From: an uncultured virus (IMG/VR IMGVR_UViG_3300042445_002545) | Lineage: Duplodnaviria > Heunggongvirae > Uroviricota > Caudoviricetes | Length of the DNA stretch: 64,000 nt | Virus record (IMG/VR): IMGVR_UViG_3300042445_002545 | Direction: 5' to 3' (one strand) | In this document: positions 27,323 to 50,588 of the stretch, piece by piece | How the letters are laid out: each line of letters opens with the position of its first letter | Numbering within the stretch: position 1 is the stretch's first letter | Position numbers and translations under genes: made by a program | Notes under the pieces: model-generated | Databases searched by the model: none | Told to the model about the DNA's origin: nothing | What the model saw: the letters and a program-made list of their open reading frames with translations, nothing else

Positions 27323-28909
27323 TTAGTTTAAGGTTGTAAATTCTCCATTTATGAAGTTTATGTGTTGAGCTCTACCGTCTGTATGTATTATAATATGTGA
27401 TTGTAACCATGTACTTGCACCTTTATTATAACCAACTCTTAATTTAGTTGATGTTCCAACTGCGATTGCACCATCTTTTCTACCTGGACTATGATAATGA
27501 CCAACAACAATTTTAGTATTCAATCTACGGAATTGTAATAATGAACCACGACTACCATTAGAACCGATATCACCATGTTGTCCAAGTTCCCAATCCTTAA
27601 CTCTATAAGATTCACTTCTACCTAACGTTTTAAATTTAGGGAATCTCTCATTTATAATTGATGGGATAACACCTTTAACACTATATGGGTCTCTACCATA
27701 CTGCTCAAGTAATAAGTCACTATATCGCATATATAATCTTGAGTTCTTGAAAGTTGGTTGTTTCTTCCAGTCTTCATTCTTCAACCATCGGTCTAAGAAA
27801 TCATCATGGTTACTTCTAACAACTACAACATTATCATATTTTTCAAATGCTTGTAACCCAGTTAACATATTTTCAACCTCTTTTTCCAAATCATTAGTAC
27901 CAGCAATTTCTTTACCGTATTGAATAAATGGGTCTTTCATTTCGTGATGTGATATTGAATTACCATCAAATACATCATGTAAAATAACATGTTTAGGTAC
28001 TAGTTTATCCATTAGTACCATAGTTGAATCAAGTACTACTTGGTCATGATGACCATAGTGAATATCACCCAATACTATAGCTGAAACTTTATCCAATTCT
28101 TTAATTAACCCATTTTCAACTCTAAAGTATAAATCACTAAAGTTACCAGTTTTGTCATCAGCAGTTACTTGTCTAGTAAAGAAAATTTCATCATCTTTTA
28201 TTTCAACAATAACAAACCCAAAGGTATGGTGGAAATCACCAGTTTTACCAGCTTTAGAGTCAGTATAGTTCTTTTTAGTAATAGAACCAGTAGTTAGCAT
28301 CATTTTTGGTCTACAACCTTCTAAAACTGGTATCATTTCTAATTGTACTTTTGGACTACCAAAGACACATGAATTAACACCACTCAAAGCCTGTAAACCA
28401 GTCATTGGATTTACCGCTGTTGGTTGAATTTTAATATCTGATAATATTGATACAAACTCATGGATATCATGTCTATTAGCATCTAAATACTTAATGACTT
28501 TACTGTCCCAATTTTCCTCTTGTTCTTGGTTTTGTGACCATATTGATGTTGGATTTTTATATCTACCAGCAATAACGTGAATATCAGCGTTGATATAATC
28601 AGCATATGCTTCAATATTCTTAAGGAATCCAGAATGTACTGGAGTGTTATTTTGAGCCCATGTGATGATAAATCTTTTTTTGTTTTCATCATGTACTCTA
28701 GCTTTGGCTTTTACATACTGTTCTGGTTCAATATCAACCTTTTCTTTTAATGATAATCTTTCAGAACACCATTTACGTATTGTTCGTTCACTAACACCGA
28801 ATTCATCACCAAGCATTGCTGCTCGTTTTTCCCATGATGTGGAGTCTTTGTCATTGTAAACTTCACGTATACGGTCCTTCTGACTTTCAGTTAAATTTTT
28901 AAATTTCAT
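27323..28909 (-). CDS. HTH plus metallophosphoesterase-fold protein, resembling the T5 A1 family
   Basis: N-terminal HTH (FGVSERTIRKW), ITWAQNNT, GDIH, HD, SNHD, QHGD, GHYHS. Confidence 0.6.
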   Translation of the reverse strand: MKFKNLTESQKDRIREVYNDKDSTSWEKRAAMLGDEFGVSERTIRKWCSERLSLKEKVDIEPEQYVKAKARVHDENKKRFIITWAQNNTPVHSGFLKNIEAYADYINADIHVIAGRYKNPTSIWSQNQEQEENWDSKVIKYLDANRHDIHEFVSILSDIKIQPTAVNPMTGLQALSGVNSCVFGSPKVQLEMIPVLEGCRPKMMLTTGSITKKNYTDSKAGKTGDFHHTFGFVIVEIKDDEIFFTRQVTADDKTGNFSDLYFRVENGLIKELDKVSAIVLGDIHYGHHDQVVLDSTMVLMDKLVPKHVILHDVFDGNSISHHEMKDPFIQYGKEIAGTNDLEKEVENMLTGLQAFEKYDNVVVVRSNHDDFLDRWLKNEDWKKQPTFKNSRLYMRYSDLLLEQYGRDPYSVKGVIPSIINERFPKFKTLGRSESYRVKDWELGQHGDIGSNGSRGSLLQFRRLNTKIVVGHYHSPGRKDGAIAVGTSTKLRVGYNKGASTWLQSHIIIHTDGRAQHINFINGEFTTLN

Positions 28910-32987: not shown

Positions 32988-33143
32988 ATGGAAGAAAAAG
33001 AAAAAAAAGTTTTAATTAATATCAGAATTGAAAAGGATGTAATTAAAAATTATAAAATACATTGTGATAAAAATGGGTATTCATTATCTAAAAGAATAAG
33101 AACACTAATAAATAAAGATTTAGAAAATGGCATACGTTTATAA
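32988..33143 (+). CDS. Small ribbon-helix-helix-like DNA-binding protein
   Basis: LINIRIEK beta strand followed by helices (YSLSKRIRTLI); directly upstream of the endonuclease. Confidence 0.55.
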   Translation: MEEKEKKVLINIRIEKDVIKNYKIHCDKNGYSLSKRIRTLINKDLENGIRL

Positions 33144-33900
33144 ACATATTAGATTAGACACAAATGACGTATTTTACATTGGTGTTGGTTCTGATAAATA
33201 CTATAGTAGAGCAAATTCTAAACATTCAAGAAATAAACATTGGTTAAATGTAGTTAATAAAGTTGGTTACAAAGTTGAAATAATTATAGATAATATCAGT
33301 TTTGATTTAGCTTTGAAGAAAGAAATTGAATTGATATCAGGGTATAAATTAATTTCAGAAGGTGGGTGTTTAGTAAATTATACTAAAGGTGGTCAAGGTC
33401 GATTAGGTTTCACACCATCACATGCAAAAAAAATATTTAGTCAAAATATTTTAACTGAAGAAATAATTGAATTTAATTCAATATTAGAAGCTTCTGAAAC
33501 TTTAAAAATCGCTAGAGCGAATATTTTAGCTGTTTTAAATAATAAAAATAGATATGCTAAAAATTTTATTTTTAATTATGATAAAACAAAATTAAACATT
33601 AATATAAGAAACACTAAAAATAATAATAAAGGTTGGTTACCCGAAACACCAATTTATATCACTAAAATAGATGAATACAAGCCACAATATTTTAAAAGTA
33701 TTTCAGAATGTATTAAAACAACGGTTTTTAATTTTTCTAGTAGTAAATTATCTAGAGTTAAAAATGGTTTACAAAAAAAACATAAAAACCATATAGTAGC
33801 AAATACATTACATGAGTTAAAAGAAAAATTTTTAAACATTACATCTAAAAGTAAAAACTCAAAGAACTATAAGAAAGAATACGCATCTCAAGGTAGGTAA
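33127..33900 (+). CDS. GIY-YIG-like homing endonuclease with NUMOD1-type repeats
   Basis: YVYKH...FYIGVG..R, E..LI, N.TKGG; FNSILEAS and FKSISEC repeats. Confidence 0.8.
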   Translation: MAYVYKHIRLDTNDVFYIGVGSDKYYSRANSKHSRNKHWLNVVNKVGYKVEIIIDNISFDLALKKEIELISGYKLISEGGCLVNYTKGGQGRLGFTPSHAKKIFSQNILTEEIIEFNSILEASETLKIARANILAVLNNKNRYAKNFIFNYDKTKLNINIRNTKNNNKGWLPETPIYITKIDEYKPQYFKSISECIKTTVFNFSSSKLSRVKNGLQKKHKNHIVANTLHELKEKFLNITSKSKNSKNYKKEYASQGR

Positions 33901-34149
33901 TTAACCGCCTTTATATCTTTCAATATTTACCCATATGTACTCCTTTGGACCATCTGGGGTAGATATTCTTTGACATACTTCAGCCCTTATTACATTAAAC
34001 ATTGGGTAATCAATTAAGAATCTATCAAAACATTCTCTAGGTATAATTCTATTTGAATGATAATCTACTAAACCATCATCACCAACAATAAATTGATGTG
34101 ACTGTGCACGATGTTGGGTGTGTAAAAATAATACTGTTAGATTTTCCAT
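33901..34149 (-). CDS. Hypothetical protein at the end of tRNA operon 1
   Basis: Start moved to ATG 34149 because the longer call overlaps tRNA-Lys. Confidence 0.6.
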   Translation of the reverse strand: MENLTVLFLHTQHRAQSHQFIVGDDGLVDYHSNRIIPRECFDRFLIDYPMFNVIRAEVCQRISTPDGPKEYIWVNIERYKGG

Positions 34150-34163
34150 TATAAATAATTTAG

Positions 34164-34236
34164 TGCACCTGGAGGGCCTCGAACCCTCTACCTTCCCGTT
34201 AAAAGCGGGAAGCCCGTCCACATGAGCTTCAGGCGC
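34164..34236 (-). tRNA. tRNA-Lys(TTT)
   Basis: Cloverleaf; anticodon arm TCCCG-CTTTTAA-CGGGA. Confidence 0.9.
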
Positions 34237-34271
34237 ATAACATAGCCATTTATTGTGTCTATGTGTCTATG

Positions 34272-34344
34272 TGCGCCCGACAGGGTTCGAACCTGTGACT
34301 CGTAAATTAAAAGTTTACTACTCTACCAACTGAGTTACGAGCGC
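34272..34344 (-). tRNA. tRNA-Lys(TTT)
   Basis: Cloverleaf; GTAAA-CTTTTAA-TTTAC. Confidence 0.92.
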
Positions 34345-34387
34345 ATATTTCTTCTTATGACACTCGTAACTTTTACAGCCGAGTGCC

Positions 34388-34432
34388 CTAACGTTTCTTC
34401 TTCTTTTTTGAAATGATTGTTAAGTTTTTCAT
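34388..34432 (-). CDS. Poly-Lys leader peptide MKNLTIISKKKKKR
   Basis: Five consecutive Lys codons; ORF ends 43 nt upstream of tRNA-Lys and is followed by alternative pairings. Confidence 0.75.
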   Translation of the reverse strand: MKNLTIISKKKKKR

Positions 34433-34466
34433 AATGTTTAATTTTTATTGTTTTATATTATTTTAG

Positions 34467-34617
34467 TGGGGCTGGGGGGAATCGAACCTAGGTTACCCTA
34501 TCTACTTCGCTTCAATGATTTGTTTGTCGACCAACGCCTCATATTCACTTTTTGACCTTAGCTGCTATAGCACCGCCTTATCGTGGCGGGTCGGTTCACC
34601 TCACCGCAAGCAACCCC
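34467..34617 (-). ncRNA. 151-nt tRNA-like RNA
   Basis: GGGGTTG/CAGCCCC-A terminal stem, TTCGATT loop, internal GC hairpins, no anticodon arm. Confidence 0.5.
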
Positions 34618-34622
34618 ATGTG

Positions 34623-34694
34623 AGCAGACGGCCAGAATCGAACTGGCATCCTCGATTTGGTAAACCGATGCACTAACCGTTGTGCTACGCCCGC
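34623..34694 (-). tRNA. tRNA-Gly(ACC), unusual A34
   Basis: TCGGT-TTACCAA-ATCGA; acceptor GCGGGCG/CGTCTGC, U73. Confidence 0.85.
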
Positions 34695-34741
34695 ATTCTA
34701 TTTTTTACCTCTATCATAAGAGCTTAAAATATAACAGCCCG

Positions 34742-34818
34742 TGGAGCGGGTGGTGGGGCTCAAACCCACAACCCCCAGCTTGGAAGGCTAGTGCTCTAAT
34801 CAATTGAGCTACACCCGC
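34742..34818 (-). tRNA. tRNA-Gly(TCC), CCA encoded
   Basis: CTAGC-CTTCCAA-GCTGG. Confidence 0.92.
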
Positions 34819-35047
34819 AATTTGTGCCTCTCTCTGCACCCGTCATACCCCTTTGTATTCTGTTAATCTCCTAAAGCCTCAGCCCTTATAAGGATTTTCC
34901 TAACGGTAAAGCGGTATCAAAAACCAGTATTCATTTAATAACGTCAGTAGGACTTAACTGGAACCTCTCATTTATATCCAATCATCAACGGGTAATTAAC
35001 CCATAAGGCGTAATCCATACATTGCTGCACGTCTATCCTACCTATTG

Positions 35048-35119
35048 AGCACTCTCCCAGAATCGAACTGAGTTATCTGATTTACAAGACCAGTGCATCA
35101 CCGAGTATGCTTAGAGTGC
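35048..35119 (-). tRNA. tRNA-Thr(TGT)
   Basis: CTGGT-CTTGTAA-ATCAG. Confidence 0.9.
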
Positions 35120-35187
35120 AAAATGATTTTTATTTCCCCCTTGAAAAGCCAAGTACAAGTCAAAAATCTAAAATTTACCCTAGCGAG

Positions 35188-35268
35188 TCGGAGCGGAGGG
35201 ATTCGAACCCCCATGCCGTTAGGACTTGATTTACAGTCAAGCGAGCCAGCCAATTGCTCAACACTCCG
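35188..35268 (-). tRNA. tRNA-Tyr(GTA)
   Basis: CTTGA-CTGTAAA-TCAAG, long variable region. Confidence 0.9.
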
Positions 35269-35335
35269 AAATACAGGATGGTACACTGTTCCAAATTAAA
35301 AGTTTGATAGTATATATTGCTGTAACCATCCTTTG

Positions 35336-35409
35336 TTATCCGAGAGGGCTTCGAACCCCCAGATTCTCCCTTCAAAGGGGAGTGACTTTGCCAGTTTGTC
35401 TATCGGACA
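35336..35409 (-). tRNA. tRNA-Gln(TTG)
   Basis: CTCCC-CTTTGAA-GGGAG. Confidence 0.9.
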
Positions 35410-35458
35410 ATAACTTCCCATAACTTATTTTTTTAATGGCTTATGGAAACCATATCAG

Positions 35459-35532
35459 TCGAGATTGGAGGAATTTAACCTACCATTCAACACCCCCCAT
35501 GAGTGTGGTCTTAAACAATAGACGAAATCTCG
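35459..35532 (-). tRNA. Degenerate tRNA-Pro-like gene
   Basis: Acceptor CGAGATT/AATCTCG-A; loop CATGGGG lacks U33; T-loop TTAAATT. Confidence 0.5.
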
Positions 35533-35535
35533 TTG

Positions 35536-35609
35536 TCGAATAGGCTGGATTCGAACCAGCGTGCTCGGCATTCCAAATGCCGCTAGATAAACCGCTCCTA
35601 TACTACTCG
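35536..35609 (-). tRNA. tRNA-Pro(TGG)
   Basis: CGGCA-TTTGGAA-TGCCG. Confidence 0.9.
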
Positions 35610-35711
35610 TTAAATTACATTCCTACTAGAGTTTATGTATAACTTAATTACCCAACATGTCAAAGAACATATAAACTTTATTTTTTGTCCCGTTTATAAA
35701 ATTATGGACAT

Positions 35712-35747
35712 AAAAAAACCCGAACTGCAATTAGCGATTCGGGTTTT
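35712..35747 (-). terminator. Attenuator terminator of tRNA operon 1
   Basis: AAAACCCGAATCGC-TAATT-GCAGTTCGGGTTTTTTT on minus strand. Confidence 0.85.
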
Positions 35748-35770
35748 AAATATCTTGTTAAGTTTAATGC

Positions 35771-35875
35771 TTAAATAAGCTTATCACTTTCAACTTGATA
35801 TGACACACCCGTCACACTAGGCTTCCCGCCTTGCGTATACTGTTTCGGTTGATATGTCGTACCTGTTGTTTTCAT
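35771..35875 (-). CDS. Leader peptide 1 MKTTGTTYQPKQYTQGGKPSVTGVSYQVESDKLI
   Basis: Lies between promoter and terminator; residues 2-19 are only K/T/G/Y/Q/P. Confidence 0.85.
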   Translation of the reverse strand: MKTTGTTYQPKQYTQGGKPSVTGVSYQVESDKLI

Positions 35876-35907
35876 TTTATTTTTTTTAATTATTTTTTAC
35901 TGTTTCT

Positions 35908-35950
35908 ATTAAATATATGCAAATATACTAAAAGTTTATAATATATGCAA
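35908..35950 (-). promoter_or_regulatory. tRNA operon 1 promoter (30-bp repeat, copy 1)
   Basis: TTG-N20-TATATTTG; ATTAAATATATGCAAATATACTAAAAGTTT is identical at 48300 and 50546. Confidence 0.85.
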
Positions 35951-35974
35951 CTTTTTTTAAATTATTTTTTTTAG

Positions 35975-36045
35975 AAGCGGATTCAGGACTCGAACCTGGC
36001 TATGGGGTTATGAGCCCCTTGTGCTACCAATTACACCAAACCGCA
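35975..36045 (-). tRNA. tRNA-Met(CAT), initiator-like
   Basis: GGGG-CTCATAA-CCCC anticodon arm, 1:72 mismatch. Confidence 0.8.
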
Positions 36046-36050
36046 ATATG

Positions 36051-36123
36051 TTCACCATAAGGGACTTCAACCCTCATCTCCACTCCCAAACGGAATGGTG
36101 CACTTACTTTGTGCTAATGGTAA
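36051..36123 (-). tRNA. Atypical tRNA-like gene, anticodon unresolved
   Basis: Acceptor, D and T arms present; anticodon arm CCATTCC-GTTTG-GGAGTGG abnormal. Confidence 0.5.
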
Positions 36124-36679
36124 ATAATGTTAGCCAGAATCATCTTTTTTTCCATAAACGAATTTTTGAATTTGCTGAACTGATTCTTATGCTAATTTTT
36201 TGAGACTGTCCAGATTTAATACTTACCTTATTCCCCTTAAATATGCGGTGATTAAATAGTTTATTCACCGCAAGGTTGTTGTGGCAGTGTAACCCTGTCT
36301 CGTAATATCTTTATCCCAAAATGATTTTTTGTGTTTTTCATCCCAGCGGATTAACCCGTTTTACGTCTTCGGCTTTGCTTTGGCGAGAGTCTACTGTTAT
36401 TCGACTGCATCCTACTTGCACCTGTTGGGGTGGTCTGACGTTTAACCTTTTTTTTATATGGAAGTCTTACCATTGTTATTAATTCCGTAGTTCCAATGAT
36501 ACAAGTACCATCTTTCCTTACCAATTAACATCTCATGTAGTTTGTCTGTTTGGTTGCAGAACTCATTTTTTTGGATAAATGTTTTATAATAAATTAAAGA
36601 ACGTTTTCTTATTTGTTTTACAAAGATAGTAACTATTTTTTGATTTGTCAACTACTTTATGAAAATATTTTAATATTTT

Positions 36680-37090
36680 TTAAAAATTCCACTCATTATT
36701 TGGTTTAACATCTTGATTATCAGTTAAATCAGTAATAAAAGTTTTTTTATTAATATCATCTCTAATTCTAGCTGCATCTTCATATCTTTCTTCAGTAACG
36801 GCTAACTCAAGTTGTTTTTGTAATGGTAATTCTTTTTTGACACCAGAAGTTTCAAGTGGTGAACCCACCATTTCAATTTTAACTATAGTACCATGTTCAT
36901 TTTCCCATTCAGTTCTTTCAAATGTGTAACCACCATCTTCATACCTAGATACCGATTTAGGTTCACCTAATTCACTTTCATCATCATTTTTTAATGATTC
37001 TCTCATATTCATTAAAGTTTTAATGAATTTTTGTAATTTCTCATTTTTCTTATTCCCATTATTAAAGGATTCGTCAAAATTATCAAACAT
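36680..37090 (-). CDS. UvrB/UvrC-motif protein
   Basis: LQKQLELAVTEERYEDAARIRDDI. Confidence 0.75.
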   Translation of the reverse strand: MFDNFDESFNNGNKKNEKLQKFIKTLMNMRESLKNDDESELGEPKSVSRYEDGGYTFERTEWENEHGTIVKIEMVGSPLETSGVKKELPLQKQLELAVTEERYEDAARIRDDINKKTFITDLTDNQDVKPNNEWNF

Positions 37091-37700
37091 AACTATTTTT
37101 TATTTATTGATTTATTATAATTTATATTGTCAAGTAAAATGCCAAATAATATTTAGTGACATTTAGTCATTAAATATCTATTTTTAAAAAATCTTAACTG
37201 ACAATTAGTCAGGTATTAATTTTTCTTAACTTTTTTAATTAGGTGTTTAATAGGGTTTACCTTAGAAAAGTGAAAATAAAGACCAAAGCAAAATGCTGAT
37301 AATAGGTAAAAAATAAATGTGGTAATTCCATAAGAACCTGTTAGTTGAAATATCATGTAAAATAGTATATCGAAACCCATCGGATTGAAGAACATTCCTA
37401 GCATTAGCATTATTATCGATATTTTTCTGTTTACTGGGGTCACTGTCCATAATTGTTTTAATTTTTTAATATTATAAAAACCGCTACATATAAATATATA
37501 GCGGTTTTGGTTTATTTAAGTTATTTTTTAATACCAACAAGTTATCATAGATACTCCTGGTACTAAACCAATAGCGTGAATTATTTCCTCTTTCCAAACT
37601 GGACCTTCAAAGTCACAATTTAATAATTTCACGATGTTTACAATCCAAGCTATTAAAACGTAAGCCCAAATTAAAAATGGTATTAAAGCTAATTTTCTCA

Positions 37701-38249
37701 TTATTCAAGTGTAAAAGTTAAGTTAGATTTTCTGATTCTAAGTGGTCTTTCAGAAATATGTAAGTATGTCCCACCACTTGGGTAATATTGATGATAGTTG
37801 TCTTGTGCATCAAACCAGAATAAATAATTTCCAGATTCACCATATGCACCACCATCATCTAATACTTCATCTGTTGTATATTGTGTACCACCAATGTATA
37901 CATAATTTGAATTACCTGGACTTTCATATCCATCACCATTTACAGTTTTAGGACTTAAACGTTTGCCACCTGAGGTAACTTTACCTTTAACTGTTGAGTA
38001 TTCTAATACGTCACCAGAATAAGATGAAATAACATACAAGTGTTTTACTTCACCAATTTGGTTGTCTCGCTGCAAACGTTCAATAATGTTTGTTTGTTCA
38101 ACTGTATGCCCTTCAGCATCAGTTTTAATGTGGGTTGTTGCTTTAATAGCACCAGAATCAGATTTTTGCTGTTTCCCATCTCCACAACCTGAAGACATAA
38201 GTACCAATGCAATCATTGATACACTCATTAATTTAAATAATTTTTTCAT
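37701..38249 (-). CDS. Putative lipoprotein
   Basis: Signal peptide ending SSG-C. Confidence 0.7.
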   Translation of the reverse strand: MKKLFKLMSVSMIALVLMSSGCGDGKQQKSDSGAIKATTHIKTDAEGHTVEQTNIIERLQRDNQIGEVKHLYVISSYSGDVLEYSTVKGKVTSGGKRLSPKTVNGDGYESPGNSNYVYIGGTQYTTDEVLDDGGAYGESGNYLFWFDAQDNYHQYYPSGGTYLHISERPLRIRKSNLTFTLE

Positions 38250-38260
38250 TTTTATTTTTT

Positions 38261-38677
38261 TTAATTAATTGATAAAATATATGGTTTAATCTCTCTAGGT
38301 AGAGGTTCTAGATTCGAAGCTGGTAAATCACCTTTATTACAAAAGGCATAGTTAAATTTACTCATTGCTGAGTTATATTCAGAACACAATGAATTGTGCA
38401 TTGAAATTAGACCCATCATTTCAGCTTGTGATTGTTGAAACTGAAAACTTTCCTGGTCTTTAATTGTTGATATTTGCGTTTTGTAAACATCAATGTTTGC
38501 TCTTTTCTCATCAATTGCTGCTGACACATCTTTGAAGTATTCATACTTCTTCAACATTGCTGATGGTGAGTACTCTTTTTGAATTACGTTTGATGCATCT
38601 CCACACATGTTTAATACAAATACCGTTGGTACGATTAAAAACATAATGACTGCAACTACTTTTAAATAAATGTTCAT
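38261..38677 (-). CDS. Membrane-anchored coiled-coil protein
   Basis: N-terminal TM segment followed by helical region. Confidence 0.65.
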   Translation of the reverse strand: MNIYLKVVAVIMFLIVPTVFVLNMCGDASNVIQKEYSPSAMLKKYEYFKDVSAAIDEKRANIDVYKTQISTIKDQESFQFQQSQAEMMGLISMHNSLCSEYNSAMSKFNYAFCNKGDLPASNLEPLPREIKPYILSIN

Positions 38678-38888
38678 ACTTTTTCTATTTTGTTTTTACA
38701 AATATATGTATAATTTTTTAATTAAACAAATAAAAAATGATTTATTTTTTAAGGTGAAAACAGGACTCGAACCTGTGGGTACCAACGATGTGATAAATCA
38801 CAACAATTTCACCCTAAAAAATTATCCTCTATTATCTGGACCATTCATGATTATATAGAAAAATATAAGAATAATAATGATTGCCATA

Positions 38889-39707
38889 TTATGAATTTAT
38901 TAAATCATTTTTAATTTCATTAACTAGATTTAAATGTTCTGTACCAAATTTTTCCCAAGCTAAGCCCATTTGTTTCAAATCGTAATGTTTAACTACCGTA
39001 CTATAATCTTTAATACCATCTTTATGACCAATCACATAGATACTATCAGCCAATTCAACAGCCAGGTTAATATCATGTGTTGAGAATATGATAGTATTCA
39101 ATTCATGACTCTCTTGAATTAATTTAAATGCTGATTTAACATTCTCAATGTTACCAACATCTAAACCACTGAACGGTTCATCAAATACCATAAAATGACC
39201 TGATGATAACAGTTGTTCAATAATCGCAGTTCTTTGTCTTTGACCACCAGATAATTCACATGGGTATTTATCCTTATGTTCAAATAATCCCCAATCAGTT
39301 AGATACTTATCAATCAATGTTGATTTCTCATCTTTAGTGATACCTTTCTTTCTCAATGCATAATTACAGATTTGTGTAATTGTTTTGTGTCTAAACAATG
39401 TATACTTTTGGTCAACAAACCCAACATCACCTTCACCTACTAATTTAGCATCATCTTTATTAACACTACCTATATCAGTAATCAACACTCTACCTGTTGT
39501 TGGTTTAATCAAACCAGTCAAAGCTTTGAATAATGTTGATTTACCTCTACCAGAACGACCAACTACTGCGATTGTCTGACCAACTACAGAACCTTCCGAA
39601 ATAACATCGTGTTCAGTAATATTAATATCTTTAATAATTGTTTTACCATCATATGCGACACTAATGTTGTCAAGACATAAAATTGTTTCTTTAATTTCGT
39701 ATTTCAT
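38889..39707 (-). CDS. ABC transporter ATP-binding protein (NitT/TauT type)
   Basis: GRSGRGKST, LSGGQRQR, VFDEPFSGLD, STHD. Confidence 0.93.
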   Translation of the reverse strand: MKYEIKETILCLDNISVAYDGKTIIKDINITEHDVISEGSVVGQTIAVVGRSGRGKSTLFKALTGLIKPTTGRVLITDIGSVNKDDAKLVGEGDVGFVDQKYTLFRHKTITQICNYALRKKGITKDEKSTLIDKYLTDWGLFEHKDKYPCELSGGQRQRTAIIEQLLSSGHFMVFDEPFSGLDVGNIENVKSAFKLIQESHELNTIIFSTHDINLAVELADSIYVIGHKDGIKDYSTVVKHYDLKQMGLAWEKFGTEHLNLVNEIKNDLINS

Positions 39708-39709
39708 AA

Positions 39710-40477
39710 TTAGATTTTTGAATATCTGAATAAACGTTTTCTGATGAATGTTAATGTGAAGTCCATAAATAGACCAACTAACAAGATGATTAACTGCAAT
39801 GCAATGATTCGACCATGATTCATGAACTTATCAGAATTTTTAATAAGAAATCCTAAACCACCAGCAGCCGCTAATATTGATTCAACCGTTACTAACATCA
39901 TCCACACAATTGCTAGATTTTGTCTAACTACTTCAATAACGTAGTCCACACGACCTTTAATTACAACTTCCCATAGAATCTCCCATCTATTGCAACCAAG
40001 TGCTCTAGCGTGGTCAAAATCCTCTTGTGGGATATCTTTTAGCATTGCTAATAATGATGTTGTTAAATAAGTTGTCATAAATGTTACCAACACCCAAACT
40101 TGAATTGCTCTACCATCAGTTAATAATATTGATATGTAAAATGAAATTCCAGTTAAAGGTAGGTATCTAAATTTACTTAAAATATTAGATATCGGTGATA
40201 TTACTGGTAGTGTTGATAGATACGCAAATACCAAGGATATTGATATTGCAATTAATACAGCTTTACCACATAGTGCTAATGAACTAAATATGTGAACAAT
40301 TAATCCCTCTTTATAAAGTTCAGATACACCACTAAATACTTGGCCTGGTGTTGGGAACATATGTGTAGTCCCAAGACTAGATAAAACCCAAAGTGTTATA
40401 ATGGTTAACAACCAACCTAATCCTATAAAAAGTTTAGTTTTTTGGGTTATATTCTCGAAAGGTTTAAAAATATTCAT
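39710..40477 (-). CDS. ABC transporter permease (NitT/TauT type)
   Basis: Multiple TMs, EAA-like loop DHARALGCNRW, GGLGFLI. Confidence 0.9.
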   Translation of the reverse strand: MNIFKPFENITQKTKLFIGLGWLLTIITLWVLSSLGTTHMFPTPGQVFSGVSELYKEGLIVHIFSSLALCGKAVLIAISISLVFAYLSTLPVISPISNILSKFRYLPLTGISFYISILLTDGRAIQVWVLVTFMTTYLTTSLLAMLKDIPQEDFDHARALGCNRWEILWEVVIKGRVDYVIEVVRQNLAIVWMMLVTVESILAAAGGLGFLIKNSDKFMNHGRIIALQLIILLVGLFMDFTLTFIRKRLFRYSKI

Positions 40478-40482
40478 ACTGA

Positions 40483-40986
40483 TTAGAAATTGTAAGTAAG
40501 TCCTGTACTGATATAATCAATACCATCCCAGTTGCTTGATTGAATAAAAATACCGTATTTTTTGATACTTACTGACATCCCAACACCATATTCAATGAAT
40601 AATTGTTTTGTTGAAATATAATTACCAATACCAAATATACCATAGACACTAATTGGTCCAATTGGTTGATTAAATGATGTTTTAACTTCATACCAGTAGT
40701 TTTGAATTGCATCACCATGGAAATCTAAATTACCTCTACCAGCAACTAAACCTAAACCAAAGTTGTCATACATACCACCAAATTCAATTGATGGGTAAGA
40801 TGTTTTACCAAATGTTGATGAACCAGTGTTTGAAATTGAGATACCAGCTGATAAGTAATAACAAACTTTAGCTGAGTCAGAACCTTTTAATTCTGAATTA
40901 TCAAAGTCAGTTGTAGTCCCTAATTTAATTTGATTGAATGATGTTAATGACACTAATAATGATAATACTAATAATAAATTTTTCAT
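40483..40986 (-). CDS. Secreted / outer-membrane beta-strand protein
   Basis: Signal peptide, alternating beta strands, C-terminal YNF. Confidence 0.55.
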   Translation of the reverse strand: MKNLLLVLSLLVSLTSFNQIKLGTTTDFDNSELKGSDSAKVCYYLSAGISISNTGSSTFGKTSYPSIEFGGMYDNFGLGLVAGRGNLDFHGDAIQNYWYEVKTSFNQPIGPISVYGIFGIGNYISTKQLFIEYGVGMSVSIKKYGIFIQSSNWDGIDYISTGLTYNF

Positions 40987-41056
40987 TTTGTTTTTTTTAA
41001 GGTTAAAAAATGGGGTAAACCTTAGATTTACCCCATTTTAATGTTTAATTTTAAGA

Positions 41057-42883
41057 TTACTGTAGTAATGTGATTTCTACTCGTCTATTCTTAGCTTTAC
41101 CTTGCGCCGTTGAGTTATCAGCAACTGGTCTAGAATCACCTTTACCATCTACCTCTTGAATACGTGATTTAGGAATCCCACGATTTTCAAGGTATTCAAC
41201 TACCGCATTTGCTCTACCTTTAGATAAGGTCATGTTGCTTGATGGGTTACCAACGTTATCAGTGTGACCTACAATTCTTAATTTAGAATCTTCCGCTTGC
41301 ATTAACAAGTTATAGATTTTCTCTAAATCTTTATTTGATACTTGTTGAATTGTAGTACTTCCAGTTGCAAAGTTAATATTCCAGTTACCACTAGCCATAA
41401 CGTGTGTTTTGTTTTTTGAGTAATCAGATTTTTCGACCATACCTACATCAATATCATCAATGTTTTTCAAGTAACGTAAGTTTACAGCTTCATCGTAAGG
41501 TACAATTCTATCAACTGATTGCATAAATCCGTAAGGATTCAATTCACTTAAGTACGTTGATACTTGGTTATATACTGACTCATAACGATTGATACCATCA
41601 CTGATACCGTAGTATTGCATAGCATCACCATAGTTAAGTACTCTTGACCCACCCATGTTGTATACAAGTCCGTTTTTATTACCTTTCGTACCTTTGAACA
41701 TTGTGTACCAGTATTCAGGTGTTTCCATATCAAATGTCTTTGCAACACATTCAGATGCTTTTACTCTCCATGAATCATATTGTTTCATTTGGTTAGATGC
41801 GGTCAATGCTGATTTAAGGATATTACTTACGATTTTAGGGTGTTTTGCCGCCCATTCTTTAACACCGATTAAAGTAGTTGCCATTTGATTTCTAAATTCA
41901 TGTGTTGATACAACATCAGTAAATCCAGTCAATGCATCAAATACAATCTTATCACCAGGTGTCCATGTAGCACAACCATCAATTTTCTTATTGATTGTCT
42001 TACCAGTCAATTTACCATCTTTAACCTCTTTCAATTCAACAGTGAAACCATTCTTTTGAGATTTGATTAATTCTTTTGCAGAGTTAATATAGTCATCATC
42101 TTCAGATGGGTAAAAGTTTACAGCTTCAGGGTCATATGTTGTTACATCAGGATTAACTTTCAATCCATTAGCAAAAACGTAGTTTAATGAAGTTACCCAG
42201 TCACCATCACCAATAACAGTTGAGATAAGAGCACCTTTCATTGATTGTGGGTCTGTTTTCCATTCTTTAGGTCCGATTAATTTATCTTCACCATCTGACA
42301 TACCGAAACAACCTTGAACCTCTACGTGATATTTACCTTCACCAAATTTATCATCTAATGCTGATTGCATAGTAGAGATGTAATATGGTGCACCATCACC
42401 CATTATAATAACACCATAAGCTGATTTATTAGATTTAGGATATTCAACACCACGGTCCATTTCCTCAATAAACTTCAACTGCATATTCTTTAATTCGGTA
42501 ACCCAGTCTTGTCTGATGATTTCCAAATTAACACCGTTTGCCTCCATAAGGGAACCTTCAGTTGTTTTTGGACCACCATTTGCTACGATGATACCAGATT
42601 GGCCATTCCAAGCGTATCCAGCAATTCGTACTACTGATTTATCAGACATTTCACTTGATAACTCATCAGATGGTAAATCAATCAAAGTACTTCTCATACT
42701 GTTATCGATATTATCATCACTCAATTCCATTCCGTCTAGTGTTTTAGATTCATCTACACGAAGTCCAGGTGCTAAGAAATACACACCAGTTAAAACGATG
42801 GCTAAACCAGCCGCTAAAATAAAAATTTCAAATCCTGTAGTCAAACCTTGATTTGGATTTTTTCTGTTAAAAATTCTTCCCAT
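41057..42883 (-). CDS. Substrate-binding-like protein fused to a C-terminal OmpA peptidoglycan-binding domain
   Basis: N-terminal TM; FATGS, GHTDNVG, LSKGRANAV, NRRVEI. Confidence 0.85.
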   Translation of the reverse strand: MGRIFNRKNPNQGLTTGFEIFILAAGLAIVLTGVYFLAPGLRVDESKTLDGMELSDDNIDNSMRSTLIDLPSDELSSEMSDKSVVRIAGYAWNGQSGIIVANGGPKTTEGSLMEANGVNLEIIRQDWVTELKNMQLKFIEEMDRGVEYPKSNKSAYGVIIMGDGAPYYISTMQSALDDKFGEGKYHVEVQGCFGMSDGEDKLIGPKEWKTDPQSMKGALISTVIGDGDWVTSLNYVFANGLKVNPDVTTYDPEAVNFYPSEDDDYINSAKELIKSQKNGFTVELKEVKDGKLTGKTINKKIDGCATWTPGDKIVFDALTGFTDVVSTHEFRNQMATTLIGVKEWAAKHPKIVSNILKSALTASNQMKQYDSWRVKASECVAKTFDMETPEYWYTMFKGTKGNKNGLVYNMGGSRVLNYGDAMQYYGISDGINRYESVYNQVSTYLSELNPYGFMQSVDRIVPYDEAVNLRYLKNIDDIDVGMVEKSDYSKNKTHVMASGNWNINFATGSTTIQQVSNKDLEKIYNLLMQAEDSKLRIVGHTDNVGNPSSNMTLSKGRANAVVEYLENRGIPKSRIQEVDGKGDSRPVADNSTAQGKAKNRRVEITLLQ

Positions 42884-42990
42884 TTTTTTTCTTTTTTTTT
42901 TGTTATTAATAATTGTTTTTAAATTTTACCTTACAAAGATAAGGATAACTTTTCAATTATCCAAATCTTTTTTGATTTTTTTTTGATTAA

Positions 42991-44094
42991 TTAAAATAAT
43001 TCACCAAATCCACCACTTTTCAACTTATCATCACCCGTTAATTTGTATTCTGGGTTGTTATAAGCTTTAGCTGAAGGTACAGTTTCAGTACCGATTCTAA
43101 TTTGATTAGCTAATGTATCTAGATTTGTATATAGTTCATCACTATCCAATGAATATTTACTTGTTAAAGTATCAATATCATTTAAGTTACCAGCTGTGAT
43201 TGCAATATCTTCAGCAATTGTACTTGTTACAACATCTAATGCGTAATCAAGTTCCCAGCTCTTAGTAAACAACATTGCTGATTTTGCACTTTCTGTAGCT
43301 TCTCTAGATTTTTGAGCAAATGCATAATCTTTCTTCAAGATTTCAATTGTTGCATCAAAGTCTAATACTTTAATATCCATACTTGTCTCAACCATTATCA
43401 ATTTTTGACCGAATTTCTTCATGATATTGGCTCTTGTACCATATTTAGTAACAAAATCTTTAGATTGTACCATTTGGTGACCTACACGTTGCGCTTCAGA
43501 TAGTAACTTCATCAATTCAGCGTTACCATTTACATAGTCGTCAGAACCTCTAGCAGCCGCACCATCCTTAGCAACCATTTCATCTAATTCAGCTTTTAAT
43601 TTCTGAGCTTTACTTTGTAATGAAATAATACGGTTTTGCATTTCTTTAGCATCTTTCTCCGATTTATCAGCTTCAACTTCCATATCTTGTCTAAGATTTG
43701 AAATTTTACCTTTAGATAATCTAAAATTTTGCTGATTAGCAATCATTAATTGTCTTTGTTTTTCCAACTCCATAAAAGGGTCATGTTTTATAATTGCCTT
43801 ATGTAAGTTTCGTGTTAAAACTCGAATACCTTTCAATATAACTGGCATAGCAATCACTAAACCAACCAATAGTATTCCAGTTGCAGCAACTGCTAAAAAT
43901 TGACCAATAGCTAAGAACAATGGTGGTAATACATATACCCATGTTAAATACCCCAATCCGATTAATGCTCCTAATTTCAAGAACCAGAATAATCCTTTTT
44001 CACCTTTTCTGAACTTGTCGATTTTGTTTGAAATCTCACCTTCAGAGAAGTGTTTCATAATAGGGAGATTCATGTACGTGTTTTGTGTTTCCAT
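42991..44094 (-). CDS. Membrane coiled-coil protein (PspA/IM30-like)
   Basis: Two TMs followed by a long coiled coil. Confidence 0.55.
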   Translation of the reverse strand: METQNTYMNLPIMKHFSEGEISNKIDKFRKGEKGLFWFLKLGALIGLGYLTWVYVLPPLFLAIGQFLAVAATGILLVGLVIAMPVILKGIRVLTRNLHKAIIKHDPFMELEKQRQLMIANQQNFRLSKGKISNLRQDMEVEADKSEKDAKEMQNRIISLQSKAQKLKAELDEMVAKDGAAARGSDDYVNGNAELMKLLSEAQRVGHQMVQSKDFVTKYGTRANIMKKFGQKLIMVETSMDIKVLDFDATIEILKKDYAFAQKSREATESAKSAMLFTKSWELDYALDVVTSTIAEDIAITAGNLNDIDTLTSKYSLDSDELYTNLDTLANQIRIGTETVPSAKAYNNPEYKLTGDDKLKSGGFGELF

Positions 44095-44096
44095 TT

Positions 44097-44792
44097 TTAC
44101 TTTAAATTATTAGTTAAACCTTGTTTTACTGCGTTAATTGATGACAGTATTTTATCTTTAGCTACATCATTAGCCATTAATTTGCAATCTACTTCAGTTA
44201 ATTCGTTTGCATATTTATTATCAATTTCCGAAAGTGATGATTGTTTTGATACAATTTGATTGCTGATTGCTTCCATTTGCATTTTCAAACCATCAAGTTC
44301 ACTAGACAATTGACTTCTTTCGTTTTCTTTAGTACTTAACAACTGATTTTTCTTAGTTGTACCGTTATCAACGTAACTTTTATGAACTTTCATAATCTCA
44401 TCAAAATAGTATTGAGATTGAGATAATAATGATTCTTTAGATACATTACCATCCATAGCTTTACCCATACTTAAGGCCATAGCATAAACTTGTGGATTAT
44501 CAATACCACCACTAACCACAGCTTTATAGAATTCATAGAAATCATAACCAGCTTGATTCAAACCATCAAAACCAGATTCATATAACTGAATGATTTTTTC
44601 TAAATGTGGTTGACATGAAGGGTTATTAATAGATGCAACTGTTGGTGTTACATTTGGAAATGTAGTGGGTGGTATCATATTCGAAGTTTCGTTTACCCCT
44701 GGAAACTTAACTGCTTCTGTTACGATAGGTGCAACAGTTTCTGGTTTTTTTTCTTCCTCATTGTTAATAAAGAACAAATCTTTTAATCCCAT
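44097..44792 (-). CDS. Coiled-coil hypothetical protein, first gene of the ABC/OmpA cluster
   Basis: Promoter at about 44834; GYDFYEF motif, C-terminal coiled coil. Confidence 0.65.
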   Translation of the reverse strand: MGLKDLFFINNEEEKKPETVAPIVTEAVKFPGVNETSNMIPPTTFPNVTPTVASINNPSCQPHLEKIIQLYESGFDGLNQAGYDFYEFYKAVVSGGIDNPQVYAMALSMGKAMDGNVSKESLLSQSQYYFDEIMKVHKSYVDNGTTKKNQLLSTKENERSQLSSELDGLKMQMEAISNQIVSKQSSLSEIDNKYANELTEVDCKLMANDVAKDKILSSINAVKQGLTNNLK

Positions 44793-45241
44793 TTTTTTTC
44801 TTTTTTTCGTTAATAATATTTTTAATTACCTGACAAAGATATGTATAATATTTCAATTAAACAAATATTTTTTAATTTTTTTTGATTTTTGTTGAGTGAA
44901 GAGGAATTGAACCTCAAGCATCTAGTATAAGAGACTGCCGTCCCCGCCTCGTCCAGAGCACCCAATGGTTTAAATTAAACTTTTTCCCAATAAGTTTTAG
45001 TTATCACCTTCTCTTTCTTTTCAACCCTATTAAGTTCTGTGATATCACTATCCTCTCTACCATAATCAGAATCAAAAACATAAGTATTAGTTTCCCAATA
45101 ACCATCTAATTCTCTAGGTAATTCTGGGAAATATTTTTCAGATATTTCAGTTATTGACCTGGTAAAGAAGTTAGAACCCCTTCTATGTTCTTCATAACTA
45201 TCTTCTTGAAAGTCTTCAATTAAGATATCAAAATCAATACC

Positions 45242-45322
45242 TAATTCTTTTGCGATTTGTCTTGTTATTTTATTAATCATAATTCTTTTGCGATTTGTCT
45301 TGTTATTTTATTAATCATAATT
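45242..45322. repeat. 38-bp direct tandem duplication covering a gene start
   Basis: TAATTCTTTTGCGATTTGTCTTGTTATTTTATTAATCA x2. Confidence 0.9.
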
Positions 45323-46851
45323 TTAATAGGTTGATTGGAATTTACTTTCTTCTAAAAAAGAACCTACTGTTTCCTTACTTTGCATTATTAAATCTTTAGC
45401 TATCTTTTCAGATATTACTTTATAGATAACATTTAAAATAGCATCCTGATGTGAACCATCTTCAAAATACTCTTTAAACTTTGTTTTAATACCAAATAAA
45501 TCAATAGTATCTTTCACATGAAACTCTTTACCATTTAATACAAACTTACAATGCATAATTATAGTATTTTCGAAGTGAGTTCCATAAGAAGTATTTATAA
45601 AAAACCCTTCAGCTGTTATAATGTTATCATTTAATTTAAAATGATGCATTATATTTTCAATTGCTTTTTCTTGAAACTCATTTAATAATTCTACACTTTT
45701 ATCTGTTGGTGCTTTATGCTCATGTACAGTTTTTTCGTAAGGTACTAAACGTTCTGTATAAGTGTGTGTATTTTTACTCATATTTTAATTTTTATCTACT
45801 TCTTTAGCTCTTTTAGTACCTAATGATATCGGTAATAAGGCCCAACCAAATACCCATGCTACTAAAAACCCTTGTAGATTAATTCCAGCTTTTTGATACA
45901 TGTCCATACCTATGACATATAAAGTACTGAAAACCCAGTATAAAAATAATAAATTATCCATAATTTTTAATTGTTAATAAGAACAAACATTCTTTTTTTA
46001 TTTGATGGTTTTTTAAATAAATCAGCAAATCTATCATTGAAACTATCTAATTCAGAATAATCTATTACTGCAACTGAATGATTAACGTAATCATCTTCAT
46101 CTACTACATCTAAATCTTTAATTGGTGTTAAATAGCAATCATAATCGGCTATTTCAGTAAAAATAAAACAATCACCTTTATGCTGATATTTCCATTCACC
46201 AATTTGACTATTCAAACCCTTACCTATTGGTATTGCAGCAGTATCGAAATCAATATCATGTTCACTTAAATCTGGTAATACTAATAACATATCACATTCA
46301 AGCATTGGTTTATGGGAATAAGACCCACCTTTAAATTCAACTAACTCAATATCAAATTTAGAAAGTCTAACCCTGACGGCCATTAGGTCATCAGGGTTTA
46401 CCTTATTAGATTTGGCTAAATATATCTTAGTTTTCATTTTCAGATACGAACCATTCGTTTTTAATTTCATTGGCAACTTCCAATTCAATAGCTTTCAACT
46501 TAATTTCCATCTTAGTGTCGTGCAATTCATTCATCCATCTTGATGCATCAAAATCTTTGCTACCTGGACGTAAACTGTATGTGTTGTCTGGTGCCAAATC
46601 AGTTAAACTAGTTAACTTATTGTTTAATTTTGAAAGCTCACGTTTCAATGTATTGATAAATGTATCAACTTCCAAGATTGTGTCTTCAGCTAATTGTTTA
46701 GCTCTTGTTTCTTTAATTGTATTATCAGAAGCTGATAACATGTTTACAAATTTACTCATAGTTTATTATTTTAATTATTAATTAATCAGGATGCAAATAT
46801 AATATCTTTTTTTTAATTACGCAACTTTTTTTAAACTTTTTTTGATTTTAG

Positions 46852-46924
46852 TTGAGATAAGGGGTTTCGAACCCCGTGTTTCCACCCGTCTAGGTGGCGT
46901 TCTAACCAATTAAACTATATCCCA
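46852..46924 (-). tRNA. Atypical tRNA with a 6-nt anticodon loop and G3.U70
   Basis: Good acceptor, D and T arms; CCACC-TAGACG-GGTGG. Confidence 0.55.
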
Positions 46925-46929
46925 ATTTG

Positions 46930-47058
46930 TCGATGTTAAGGGACTCGAACCCATGAGCGGATGCCTCCTATTGTGTTACCTATTATTTAACGTGGACTCG
47001 AACCACACAGCCACCAAGACCAAATCCGAATCGAACGGAATACTCGCCAACAACACCG
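46930..47058 (-). ncRNA. tRNA-like RNA with three T-loop hairpins
   Basis: CGGTGTT/AACATCG-A closing stem; TTCGATT, TTCGAGT, TTCGAGT loops. Confidence 0.55.
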
Positions 47059-47061
47059 TTG

Positions 47062-47204: not shown

Positions 47205-47248
47205 AAATAAGATTTTTGTAATTACCTGGAATCTTGTAACCAGTTATG

Positions 47249-48017: not shown

Positions 48018-48029
48018 ATTATTGTTTTA

Positions 48030-48131: not shown

Positions 48132-48164
48132 AAAAAAAGCTCTGATTTTTAGGTCAGAGCTTTT
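48132..48164 (-). terminator. Attenuator terminator of tRNA operon 2
   Basis: AAAAGCTCTGA-CCTAAAAA-TCAGAGCTTTTTTT on minus strand. Confidence 0.85.
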
Positions 48165-48187
48165 ATCAATTATGTTAAACGATTACG

Positions 48188-48277
48188 TTAACTTATGACA
48201 ATAGTTGACCTTCCCAAGCTTTCATCCGCCTCGGCTGCAAAAAATGCAAAATCAAATATGTTAGTTAATGTTCTCAT
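48188..48277 (-). CDS. Leader peptide 2 MRTLTNIFDFAFFAAEADESLGRSTIVIS
   Basis: Residues 8-19 are only F/D/A/E. Confidence 0.85.
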   Translation of the reverse strand: MRTLTNIFDFAFFAAEADESLGRSTIVIS

Positions 48278-48299
48278 TGTGTTTTTTATTCGTGTTCTA

Positions 48300-48342
48300 A
48301 TTAAATATATGCAAATATACTAAAAGTTTTTTTATTTGTCAA
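48300..48342 (-). promoter_or_regulatory. tRNA operon 2 promoter (30-bp repeat, copy 2)
   Basis: TTG-N20-TATATTTG, identical 30-mer. Confidence 0.85.
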
Positions 48343-50385: not shown

Positions 50386-50417
50386 AAAAAACCCGAAGTG
50401 ACTAATCGCTTCGGGTT
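50386..50417 (-). terminator. Attenuator terminator of tRNA operon 3
   Basis: AACCCGAAGCGA-TTAG-TCACTTCGGGTTTTTT on minus strand. Confidence 0.85.
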
Positions 50418-50446
50418 GTGAATATTGTTTATTTATTATTAAACTA

Positions 50447-50521
50447 TCAACACAGCCCAAAACTGACTACCACTAAAAGTAGACATAAGTTAAGCACCAA
50501 AATGTTGTTAATTGTTTTCAT
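50447..50521 (-). CDS. Leader peptide 3 MKTINNILVLNLCLLLVVVSFGLC
   Basis: 11 of residues 8-19 are L/V/C. Confidence 0.85.
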   Translation of the reverse strand: MKTINNILVLNLCLLLVVVSFGLC

Positions 50522-50545
50522 CGTATTAATTTTTTAATCGTTTTA

Positions 50546-50588
50546 ATTAAATATATGCAAATATACTAAAAGTTTTTTAATTTGTCAA
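50546..50588 (-). promoter_or_regulatory. tRNA operon 3 promoter (30-bp repeat, copy 3)
   Basis: TTG-N20-TATATTTG, identical 30-mer. Confidence 0.85.

Follow-up and report, generated by a model that had tools for sequence, protein, structure and literature searches.

A putative leader-peptide attenuator ahead of a transfer RNA gene cluster in an uncultured tailed virus, and its paralogues

The amino-acid operon leaders of enterobacteria combine a short open reading frame (ORF) rich in regulatory codons with alternative 1:2, 2:3 and 3:4 hairpins and an intrinsic terminator, and they regulate genes for biosynthetic enzymes. The trp, his, leu and pheA leaders each respond to a single amino acid, and the multivalent leaders thr (Thr and Ile) and ilvGMEDA (Ile, Leu and Val) sense several. 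In Escherichia coli, the pheM leader attenuator controls the pheST operon for phenylalanyl-transfer RNA synthetase. Here, a leader with cognate codons governs part of the decoding machinery, and expression follows the supply of charged transfer RNA (tRNA). T-box riboswitches likewise use a terminator/antiterminator switch that answers to a specific tRNA pool, binding uncharged tRNA directly and requiring no translation. A unit with features of these systems, here called T1, lies at positions 35,712 to 35,950 of a 64,000-nucleotide stretch of DNA from an uncultured member of the Caudoviricetes from a lake (IMG/VR record IMGVR_UViG_3300042445_002545), and this whole stretch is referred to as the window. 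T1 is probably a transcription attenuator of the ribosome-mediated (leader-peptide) kind, through which decoding speed would control transcription of a Pro-Gln-Tyr-Thr-Gly-Gly-Lys-Lys tRNA cluster.

T1 shares with the operon leaders the short ORF rich in regulatory codons, the predicted set of alternative hairpins and the intrinsic terminator, and with thr and ilvGMEDA the apparent sensing of several amino acids by one leader. In contrast to these leaders, the viral units would regulate tRNA genes rather than biosynthetic enzymes, and they would do so with six or seven amino acids per leader and four leaders that together cover all 20. The pheM leader is cellular, monitors one amino acid and controls a synthetase gene, whereas the product of T1 would be the tRNA itself, giving a direct feedback loop. 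Compared with T-box elements, T1 has a leader ORF and lacks both T-box motifs and an Rfam match: a cmscan search of 33000-51500 (E up to 1) matched no Rfam leader family (His, Thr, Leu, Trp and others) and no T-box, returning only tRNAs and weak unrelated hits. Additionally, no description of tRNA genes under leader-peptide control was found in the passages returned by a full-text literature search. While the class of mechanism is a known one, the apparent target (viral tRNA genes) and the apparent four-unit design for many amino acids are not known from described systems. The elements of T1 and the genes that follow it are:

35908..35950, minus strand: T1 promoter, with TTG (-33) at 35950-35948 and the -7 box TATATTTG at 35927-35920
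35933-35908, minus strand: 26-nucleotide (nt) promoter block TTTTAGTATATTTGCATATATTTAAT, identical in T1 and in the paralogous units T2 and T3
35875-35771, minus strand: T1 leader ORF with ATG start, 34 codons plus stop, peptide MKTTGTTYQPKQYTQGGKPSVTGVSYQVESDKLI
35819..35872, minus strand: putative sensor core, codons 2-19 of the leader, 18/18 Lys/Thr/Gly/Tyr/Gln/Pro
35846..35868, minus strand: segment 1 (leader nt 8-30, codons 3-10), anti-antiterminator predicted to pair with segment 2 on ribosome-free transcripts
35813..35837, minus strand: predicted local hairpin UACGC-AGGC-loop-GCCU-GUGUG inside the leader ORF
35791..35811, minus strand: segment 2, CGGGUGUGUCAUAUCAAGUUG (nt 65-85, codons 22-29), partner of segment 1 or segment 3
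35734..35761, minus strand: segment 3, with UUAAC at 35761-35757, GAUAU at 35754-35750 and ACCCG at 35744-35740
35747..35712, minus strand: intrinsic terminator AAAACCCGAA-ucGCuaauuGCag-UUCGGGUUUU, a G/C-rich hairpin with a 7-U tract at 35718-35712
35657..35668, minus strand: motif GTTCTTTGACAT within the conserved block GTTCWTTGACATRTTGGGTAA, between the terminator and tRNA-Pro
35609..34163, minus strand: T1 tRNA cluster Pro(UGG), Gln(UUG), Tyr(GUA), Thr(UGU), Gly(UCC), Gly(ACC), Lys(UUU), Lys(UUU), called by ARAGORN and Rfam

The feature that first drew attention to T1 is its sensor core. A recount agrees with the original prediction that all 18 of leader residues 2-19 come from Lys, Thr, Gly, Tyr, Gln and Pro, the six amino acids of the downstream tRNAs. 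These six amino acids account for a fraction of 0.302 of the 13,472 residues in 66 long ORFs of the window, which gives a run of such length a chance of about 4e-10 (0.302^18). When the whole window was translated in six frames (118,115 residues), no longer run of the set was found, the next reaching 8 residues. The enrichment in regulatory codons that characterizes attenuators is thus found in the T1 core and is repeated in the units T2 to T4 described below. As expected for an attenuator, the short ORF is located just 3' of the promoter, its start lying 33-34 nt past the conserved promoter block, and it is kept open in all four distinct T1 variants. The untranslated stretch before it is A-rich and contains no Shine-Dalgarno sequence, the absence of which is expected for Bacteroidota-type hosts. 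Searching viral contigs for the conserved segment-2 string gave 7 loci, each on a contig known already, and thus no further T1 variants. Since four variants are too few for column-wise covariation, T1 was evaluated by per-sequence folds and by named compensating changes.

An intrinsic terminator between leader ORF and regulated genes, a further hallmark of attenuators, begins 23 nt past the leader stop, and tRNA-Pro follows 102 nt beyond its U tract. A simple terminator scan with a loop limit of 8 missed this hairpin in 33800-37200 owing to its 13-nt loop region; it was found by folding. The full-length T1 leader RNA reaches a minimum free energy (MFE) of -46.5 kcal/mol (z = -4.60), a value that none of 200 shuffles attains. 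In the growing transcript, the MFE structure between 76 and 132 nt is the 1:2 pairing around the local hairpin, which is possibly a pause hairpin. At 140-148 nt it is the 2:3 antiterminator, composed of CGGGU:ACCCG, AUAUC:GAUAU and GUUGA:UUAAC, and at full length it is 1:2 pairing plus terminator. Segment 3 contributes the 3' strand of the antiterminator; it also overlaps the 5' arm of the terminator. The same alternation is predicted for all four T1 variants, which adopt 1:2 plus terminator at full length and 2:3 when cut before the terminator 3' arm. Folding therefore predicts the classic 1:2, 2:3 and 3:4 attenuator layout. The original prediction had placed the pairing strands at GUGACGGGU (35815-35807) and ACCCGAAUCGC (35744-35734), and these positions are right. 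Its three helices all occur in the MFE structure of the truncated transcript; the proposed GUGA:UCGC extension is missing from it because GUGUG sits in the local hairpin. The competing antiterminator fold, whose absence would have spoken against an attenuator, thus exists.

The placement of the core codons was evaluated with a ribosome mask, in which a footprint from 15 nt before to 12 nt after the A site was moved codon by codon along the truncated transcript and the partition function was calculated, ignoring steric effects. In 11 of 11 variants from all four types, segment 3 is engaged by upstream sequence as long as the A site is on core codons, and this engagement drops sharply a few codons past the core. 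Therefore, the matching codons end where stalling would no longer be productive. In this model, the antiterminator is freed solely while the A site is on matching codons, so that the codons appear to be placed for release of the antiterminator by a stalled ribosome. The other structural feature of attenuators, an antiterminator that uses the terminator 5' arm and excludes the terminator, is predicted in 4/4 T1 variants and in 15/17 variants of the paralogous types.

T1 belongs to a family of four units, of which three occur in the window and the fourth in relatives:

50386..50571, minus strand: T2 unit, with promoter at 50571-50546, leader at 50521-50447 (MKTINNILVLNLCLLLVVVSFGLC) and terminator at 50417-50386
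from 50378, minus strand: T2 tRNAs Cys, Val, Leu(UAA) and Leu(UAG), directly following the T2 terminator
48132..48325, minus strand: T3 unit, with promoter at 48325-48300, leader at 48277-48188 (MRTLTNIFDFAFFAAEADESLGRSTIVIS) and terminator at 48160-48132
after the T3 terminator, minus strand: T3 tRNAs Phe, Glu, His, Asp, Ala and others
absent from the window, found in relatives: T4 unit, with a leader beginning M[RI]TNNIHRMSISNWRRNS

In the complete relative G002 (287,855 bp), the T4 leader is followed by tRNAs for Asn, His, Trp, Ser, Ile, Met, Arg, Arg and Ser, and residues 2-20 of the four leaders jointly use all 20 amino acids. Each leader matches the cluster that it precedes. Among residues 2-20, the cognate fraction in the window is 18/19 for T1, 11/19 for T2 and 12/19 for T3, and in G002 17/19 for both T1 and T4, against background expectations of 0.30 (T1), 0.15 (T2), 0.25 (T3) and 0.31 (T4). 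When all four leaders were scored against all four tRNA sets, the values for the own set were 0.95, 0.58, 0.63 and 0.84, while off-diagonal values did not exceed 0.32. Additionally, each leader of the window is the longest run for its own set in the six frames (18 vs 8, 8 vs 7 and 12 vs 7 residues). Most tRNA genes are part of such arrangements: 18 of the 20 tRNA calls in the window (19 by ARAGORN and one by Rfam only) lie inside the three clusters, and 18 of the 22 Rfam tRNA matches of G002 lie inside two leader-headed clusters.

The units also share a promoter. Allowing up to 3 mismatches, the window contains exactly three copies of the 26-mer TTTTAGTATATTTGCATATATTTAAT (0 expected), located solely at the three leaders, and each has a short ORF, a terminator and a tRNA cluster downstream of it. 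When viral contigs were searched for exact matches to a promoter 23-mer, 23 loci on 15 contigs were obtained, and 22 of these loci carry one of the four leader types. A promoter 20-mer found 40 loci in metagenomes. Of these, 17 have a leader of the four types, some of them divergent T1 and T2 variants; the remaining 23 comprise three tmRNA (transfer-messenger RNA) genes, several loci before tRNA-Met, and unrelated or truncated sequences. A hairpin plus U tract follows 26 of the 27 short post-promoter ORFs examined. The tmRNA genes with the 20-mer directly 5' of them (loci L050, L060 and L063, Rfam 54-76 bits) indicate that the leaders use a promoter of the stable-RNA type. "Tiny ORFs" after this promoter (MGVLGY and similar) were considered as a fifth leader type and rejected, as they represent the 5' ends of tmRNA genes.

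In form, the T1 promoter fits the pattern TTG-N17-23-TAnnTTTG known from Bacteroidota, and judged by this form the host is probably Bacteroidota-like. The pattern matches 28 minus-strand sites in the window. No TAnnTTTG promoter is found on the minus strand between 35920 and 32666, hence none between the T1 terminator and its tRNAs, and no match to the full pattern lies after the T2 terminator or within the T2 tRNA cluster. Across loci, tRNA-Cys starts 7-15 nt past the T2 U tract (7 nt in the window), which leaves no room for a promoter, and therefore tRNA-Cys should be producible by read-through alone.

Conservation further supports the alternative folds. Among 17 variants of T2 to T4, full-length folds contain the terminator in 16 (L012 favours the antiterminator), and truncated folds contain the 2:3 pairing in 15. 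For 14 variants, the duplex energies of the cognate 2:3 segments sum to -215.6 kcal/mol, compared with -155.9 kcal/mol (standard deviation 10.1) when partners are permuted, and none of 20,000 permutations reaches this value. The cognate partner ranked first in 7 of the 14 variants and first or second in 11; that of G002 T1 ranked 12th because the segment-3 window left out the GAUAU helix. The 2:3 helix has been rebuilt with different sequences several times: as CUAGGUC:GACCUAG vs GAGACG:CGUCUC in T4, as AGGUCA:UGACCU vs GUGGUCGG:CCGACCAC in T3, and as GGGUUUGU:ACAAACCC in the T1 unit of L071. In an alignment of 11 T2 sequences, pairing reaches 98.3% for the terminator, which has 5 compensatory pairs (0/500 shuffles), and 80.1%, against 26-49% for slid pairings, for the antiterminator, which has 5 two-sided pairs.

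Core and tail of the leaders evolve differently. Between T1 of the window and that of G002, the core differs by 5 synonymous changes and 1 other, the tail by 1 and 4, respectively. In T3, the core carries 4 synonymous and 2 within-set changes and 1 other, and the tail 3 synonymous and 6 others; for T4 (L009 vs L016), the core shows 2 synonymous and 4 within-set changes and 1 other. The nucleotides of segment 2 are invariant in the T1 variants of the window, of the L001 type and of G002 although the peptide tail varies. Core changes that are mostly synonymous or within the cognate set, next to free peptide tails, are what would be expected of a core that serves as codons and a tail that is maintained as RNA. 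The leader-peptide attenuator interpretation of the original prediction is thus supported: promoter, cognate ORF, terminator, antiterminator, 1:2 pairing and codon placement are all present and conserved, and the sequence analysis also establishes recurrence of these parts, predicted alternative folds, co-variation, a codon-to-tRNA match and codon-level selection.

A related proposal, that the varied synonymous codons of the T1 core sample several isoacceptors, is weakly supported. Rare G/C-ending codons are enriched in the T1 core (7/18 vs 2.5 expected, binomial p = 0.008), as well as in the T2 core (7/17 vs 2.7 expected, p = 0.011); the T3 core shows no enrichment of G/C-ending codons. Against it, G002 T1 has replaced GGC, GGG, AAG and CAG by A/T-ending synonyms, and at least one of these swaps is a compensatory hairpin change (AGGC:GCCU to AGGU:ACCU), the local hairpin of G002 being preserved by a two-sided exchange in which synonymous changes (GGC to GGU and AAG to AAA) turn a C-G into a U-A pair. 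Furthermore, most phage tRNAs here carry U34 and read A- and G-ending codons alike. Under strict wobble rules, the downstream anticodons can read 16/18 core codons in T1, 8/12 in T2 and 11/12 in T3. A structural role thus seems at least as important for the rare core codons as any sampling of isoacceptors.

It is proposed that transcription would start at a strong promoter of the stable-RNA type and that a ribosome would translate the 34-codon leader. If usable charged tRNA is short, the ribosome would stall at the Lys, Thr, Gly, Tyr, Gln or Pro codons between codon 2 and about codon 17, which would break the 1:2 pairing and set segment 2 free. Pairing of segment 2 with segment 3, the terminator 5' arm, would then block the terminator, and the polymerase would read into the genes for tRNA-Pro, Gln, Tyr, Thr, Gly, Gly, Lys and Lys. 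With fast decoding, the ribosome would cover segment 2 and the terminator would form; in the absence of a ribosome, 1:2 would form and the terminator as well. The new phage tRNAs would speed up decoding and thereby shut off the unit in a negative feedback, and each of the paralogues T1 to T4 would sense the amino acids of its own tRNA cluster. From leader translation through stalling to conditional read-through, these steps are inferred from sequence features.

Several observations weigh against this interpretation. At the level of folding, the T1 antiterminator consists of three 5-bp helices split by internal loops and is only marginally better than the 1:2 pairing (-30.0 vs -29.4 kcal/mol), and the truncated MFE structures of L019 (the T3 type of the window) and L016 lack 2:3. 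For the T2 antiterminator, 30 of 500 shuffles match the 80.1% pairing, so that support from the alignment is modest. The correspondence of leaders and clusters is also imperfect. In L066, a T2 leader precedes tRNAs for Cys, Val, Asn, Ile, His, Arg, Arg and Trp, no Leu tRNA is found within 2 kb, and the cognate score is 9/19; several short loci score 1-7/19, at least partly for little downstream sequence. Non-cognate residues occur near the leader N terminus (INNI in T2, LTNI in T3), and four of the 22 G002 tRNAs lie outside leader-headed clusters, among them a Met/Arg pair at 37 kb that has an ordinary promoter and lacks a leader. In T3, a second promoter (TATCTTTG), which ends at 48030, is located directly 5' of tRNA-Phe, and the T3 leader is therefore not the sole route to this tRNA cluster. 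Finally, the conserved motif in the 102-nt spacer before tRNA-Pro could be a promoter of an unrecognised type. Exact matches to GTTCTTTGACAT are found solely here and past the T3 terminator, and the block GTTCWTTGACATRTTGGGTAA is kept in 4/4 T1 variants while its flanks diverge. A similar GTTCTTTGAAAT lies past the T3 terminator, the common motif GTTCTTTGA[CA]AT being located at 35657-35668 and 48088-48099 (minus strand). The GTTCWTTGACATRTTGGGTAA block may resemble the boxA element of ribosomal RNA antitermination. GTTCTT-like strings also occur just 3' of the leader-type promoter in metagenome tmRNA and tRNA-Met loci.

If T1 is such an attenuator, the supply of usable tRNA is as likely a signal as amino-acid starvation, and sequence alone does not separate them. 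Why phages carry tRNA genes has long been debated, and proposals include matching of codon usage, substitution for host tRNAs that have been degraded, and evasion of defences that cleave tRNA. It is possible, though doubtful, that the four leaders form a complete 20-amino-acid sensor of decoding capacity, each switching on exactly the phage tRNA set whose counterparts in the host have run short, for example through anticodon nucleases or host tRNA decay during infection, and switching it off once decoding is restored. If true, phage tRNA genes of this kind would be an inducible, self-limiting counter-measure and not a constitutive supplement to codon usage. If decoding speed is monitored for precisely those amino acids whose tRNAs are gated, the question of tRNA purpose becomes testable, as the conditions under which each switch opens would reveal the role of the tRNAs. 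Leader-peptide attenuation would, if the attenuator reading is true, extend to tRNA genes, to viruses and to leaders that monitor six or seven amino acids at once. With one shared promoter sequence and distinct sensor cores, the four paralogous units would provide a natural orthogonal set of codon-speed reporters.

The same hardware might instead, as the original prediction proposed, report host amino-acid starvation, with tRNA output rising when any of the six amino acids is low, rather than tRNA shortage or damage; this version is rather unlikely. Its design would be that of the amino-acid attenuators, and as stalling depends on charged tRNA, starvation would trigger the switch too. On the other hand, extra tRNA could not relieve a lack of amino acid, which would render the response useless to the phage, and the genes for a CCA-adding nucleotidyltransferase and two RNA ligases near the tRNA region make tRNA integrity a plausible concern.

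It is improbable that the units act as a constitutive damper or a general translation monitor, with a fixed low read-through from a very strong promoter and a codon-tRNA match left over from ancestry. The promoter core drives tmRNA genes elsewhere and is thus probably very strong, and both the second T3 promoter and the poor match of leader and cluster in L066 would fit such a damper. However, each of the four leader types follows the tRNA set of its own cluster, with substitutions that stay within the set, the core ends where stalling would turn unproductive in 11/11 variants, and 2:3 complementarity is kept by compensating changes, all of which argue against a damper.

There is very little likelihood that the short ORFs encode functional peptides, or that the RNAs are small regulatory RNAs with terminators of their own, and that the tRNAs are transcribed independently. 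The T2 peptide is hydrophobic like a membrane peptide, each unit has its own promoter and terminator, and a promoter might be concealed in the conserved block ahead of tRNA-Pro. Yet the T2 variants conserve composition and not peptide sequence, the tails vary while their nucleotides keep pairing, the distance between the T2 terminator and tRNA-Cys leaves no space for independent initiation, and the match to the tRNA sets would be left unexplained. An accidental ORF in an A/T-rich spacer beside tRNAs is effectively refuted: short ORFs are common (50 of at least 20 amino acids overlap 33800-37200), but the T1 run, with p of about 4e-10, is the single longest in the window, and the pattern recurs in three more units, on 15 viral contigs and at 17 metagenome loci.

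Among the contigs from four RNA-labelled runs, two cover parts of T1. A 151-nt piece of run X15 corresponds to 35687-35837 with no differences and extends 23 nt past the U tract, where 31 nt were needed for it to count as bridging. A 469-nt piece of run X17, from a relative (22 differences), covers promoter to spacer but includes 111 letters upstream of the promoter, and it may be DNA. As these runs were available as contigs only and cover small parts of the stretch, transcript ends and read-through are not visible in them.

With regard to relatives, megablast of 34000-38000 against named phages gave no match. Ranked by similarity of the CCA transferase, two uncultured huge phages (51% and 49%) come closest, followed by Tenacibaculum phage PTm1 (38%). 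ARAGORN found no tRNA in the 41-kb stretches around these three CCA-transferase genes, which therefore do not test how far the design reaches. In the window, genes of the tRNA maturation and repair type are located near the tRNA region on the minus strand (50959-52173, 57650-58708, 63140-63973 and 54049-55476) and comprise a CCA-adding-type nucleotidyltransferase, two RNA ligase families and a kinase-like protein. Further genes of the window encode a phage sigma factor (19262-20149) and a T5 A1-like DNA transfer protein (27323-28909).

Some units contain small ORFs in addition to tRNAs. A basic ORF of 52 amino acids (containing KVVLTGTYKGSYENFR) is found at 50291-50133 (minus strand), directly past tRNA-Cys within T2, and is kept in L036 and L066. 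In T4 units, a conserved ORF of about 60 amino acids (ME.LVRTLGTVKV..) lies between the terminator and tRNA-Asn. Both ORFs would be under attenuator control.

Several tRNA-related sequences of the window are unusual. The tRNA-Gly with anticodon ACC (34622-34694, minus strand) carries an A at the wobble position, which is uncommon for bacteria-type tRNAs, and is kept in L003, L013 and L071. A tRNA-like gene at 46851-46924 (minus strand) has a short anticodon loop for which ARAGORN reports the two-letter anticodon "(ga)"; it scores 43.1 bits as an Rfam tRNA, and the same gene is located past the T3 cluster in the relatives L002 and L019. At about 47060-47204 (minus strand), two apparent tRNA halves, 5' and 3', are separated by some 70 nt. 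This element may be an interrupted tRNA, and Rfam reports it as a weak tmRNA match (15.5 bits vs a cut-off of 47). Finally, a tRNA-Met and an ARAGORN-only "tRNA-Lys" without Rfam support lie at 35974-36123 (minus strand), just upstream of the T1 promoter. Between this region and the promoter there is no terminator, so that transcripts from a promoter at 36621 would enter the T1 leader.

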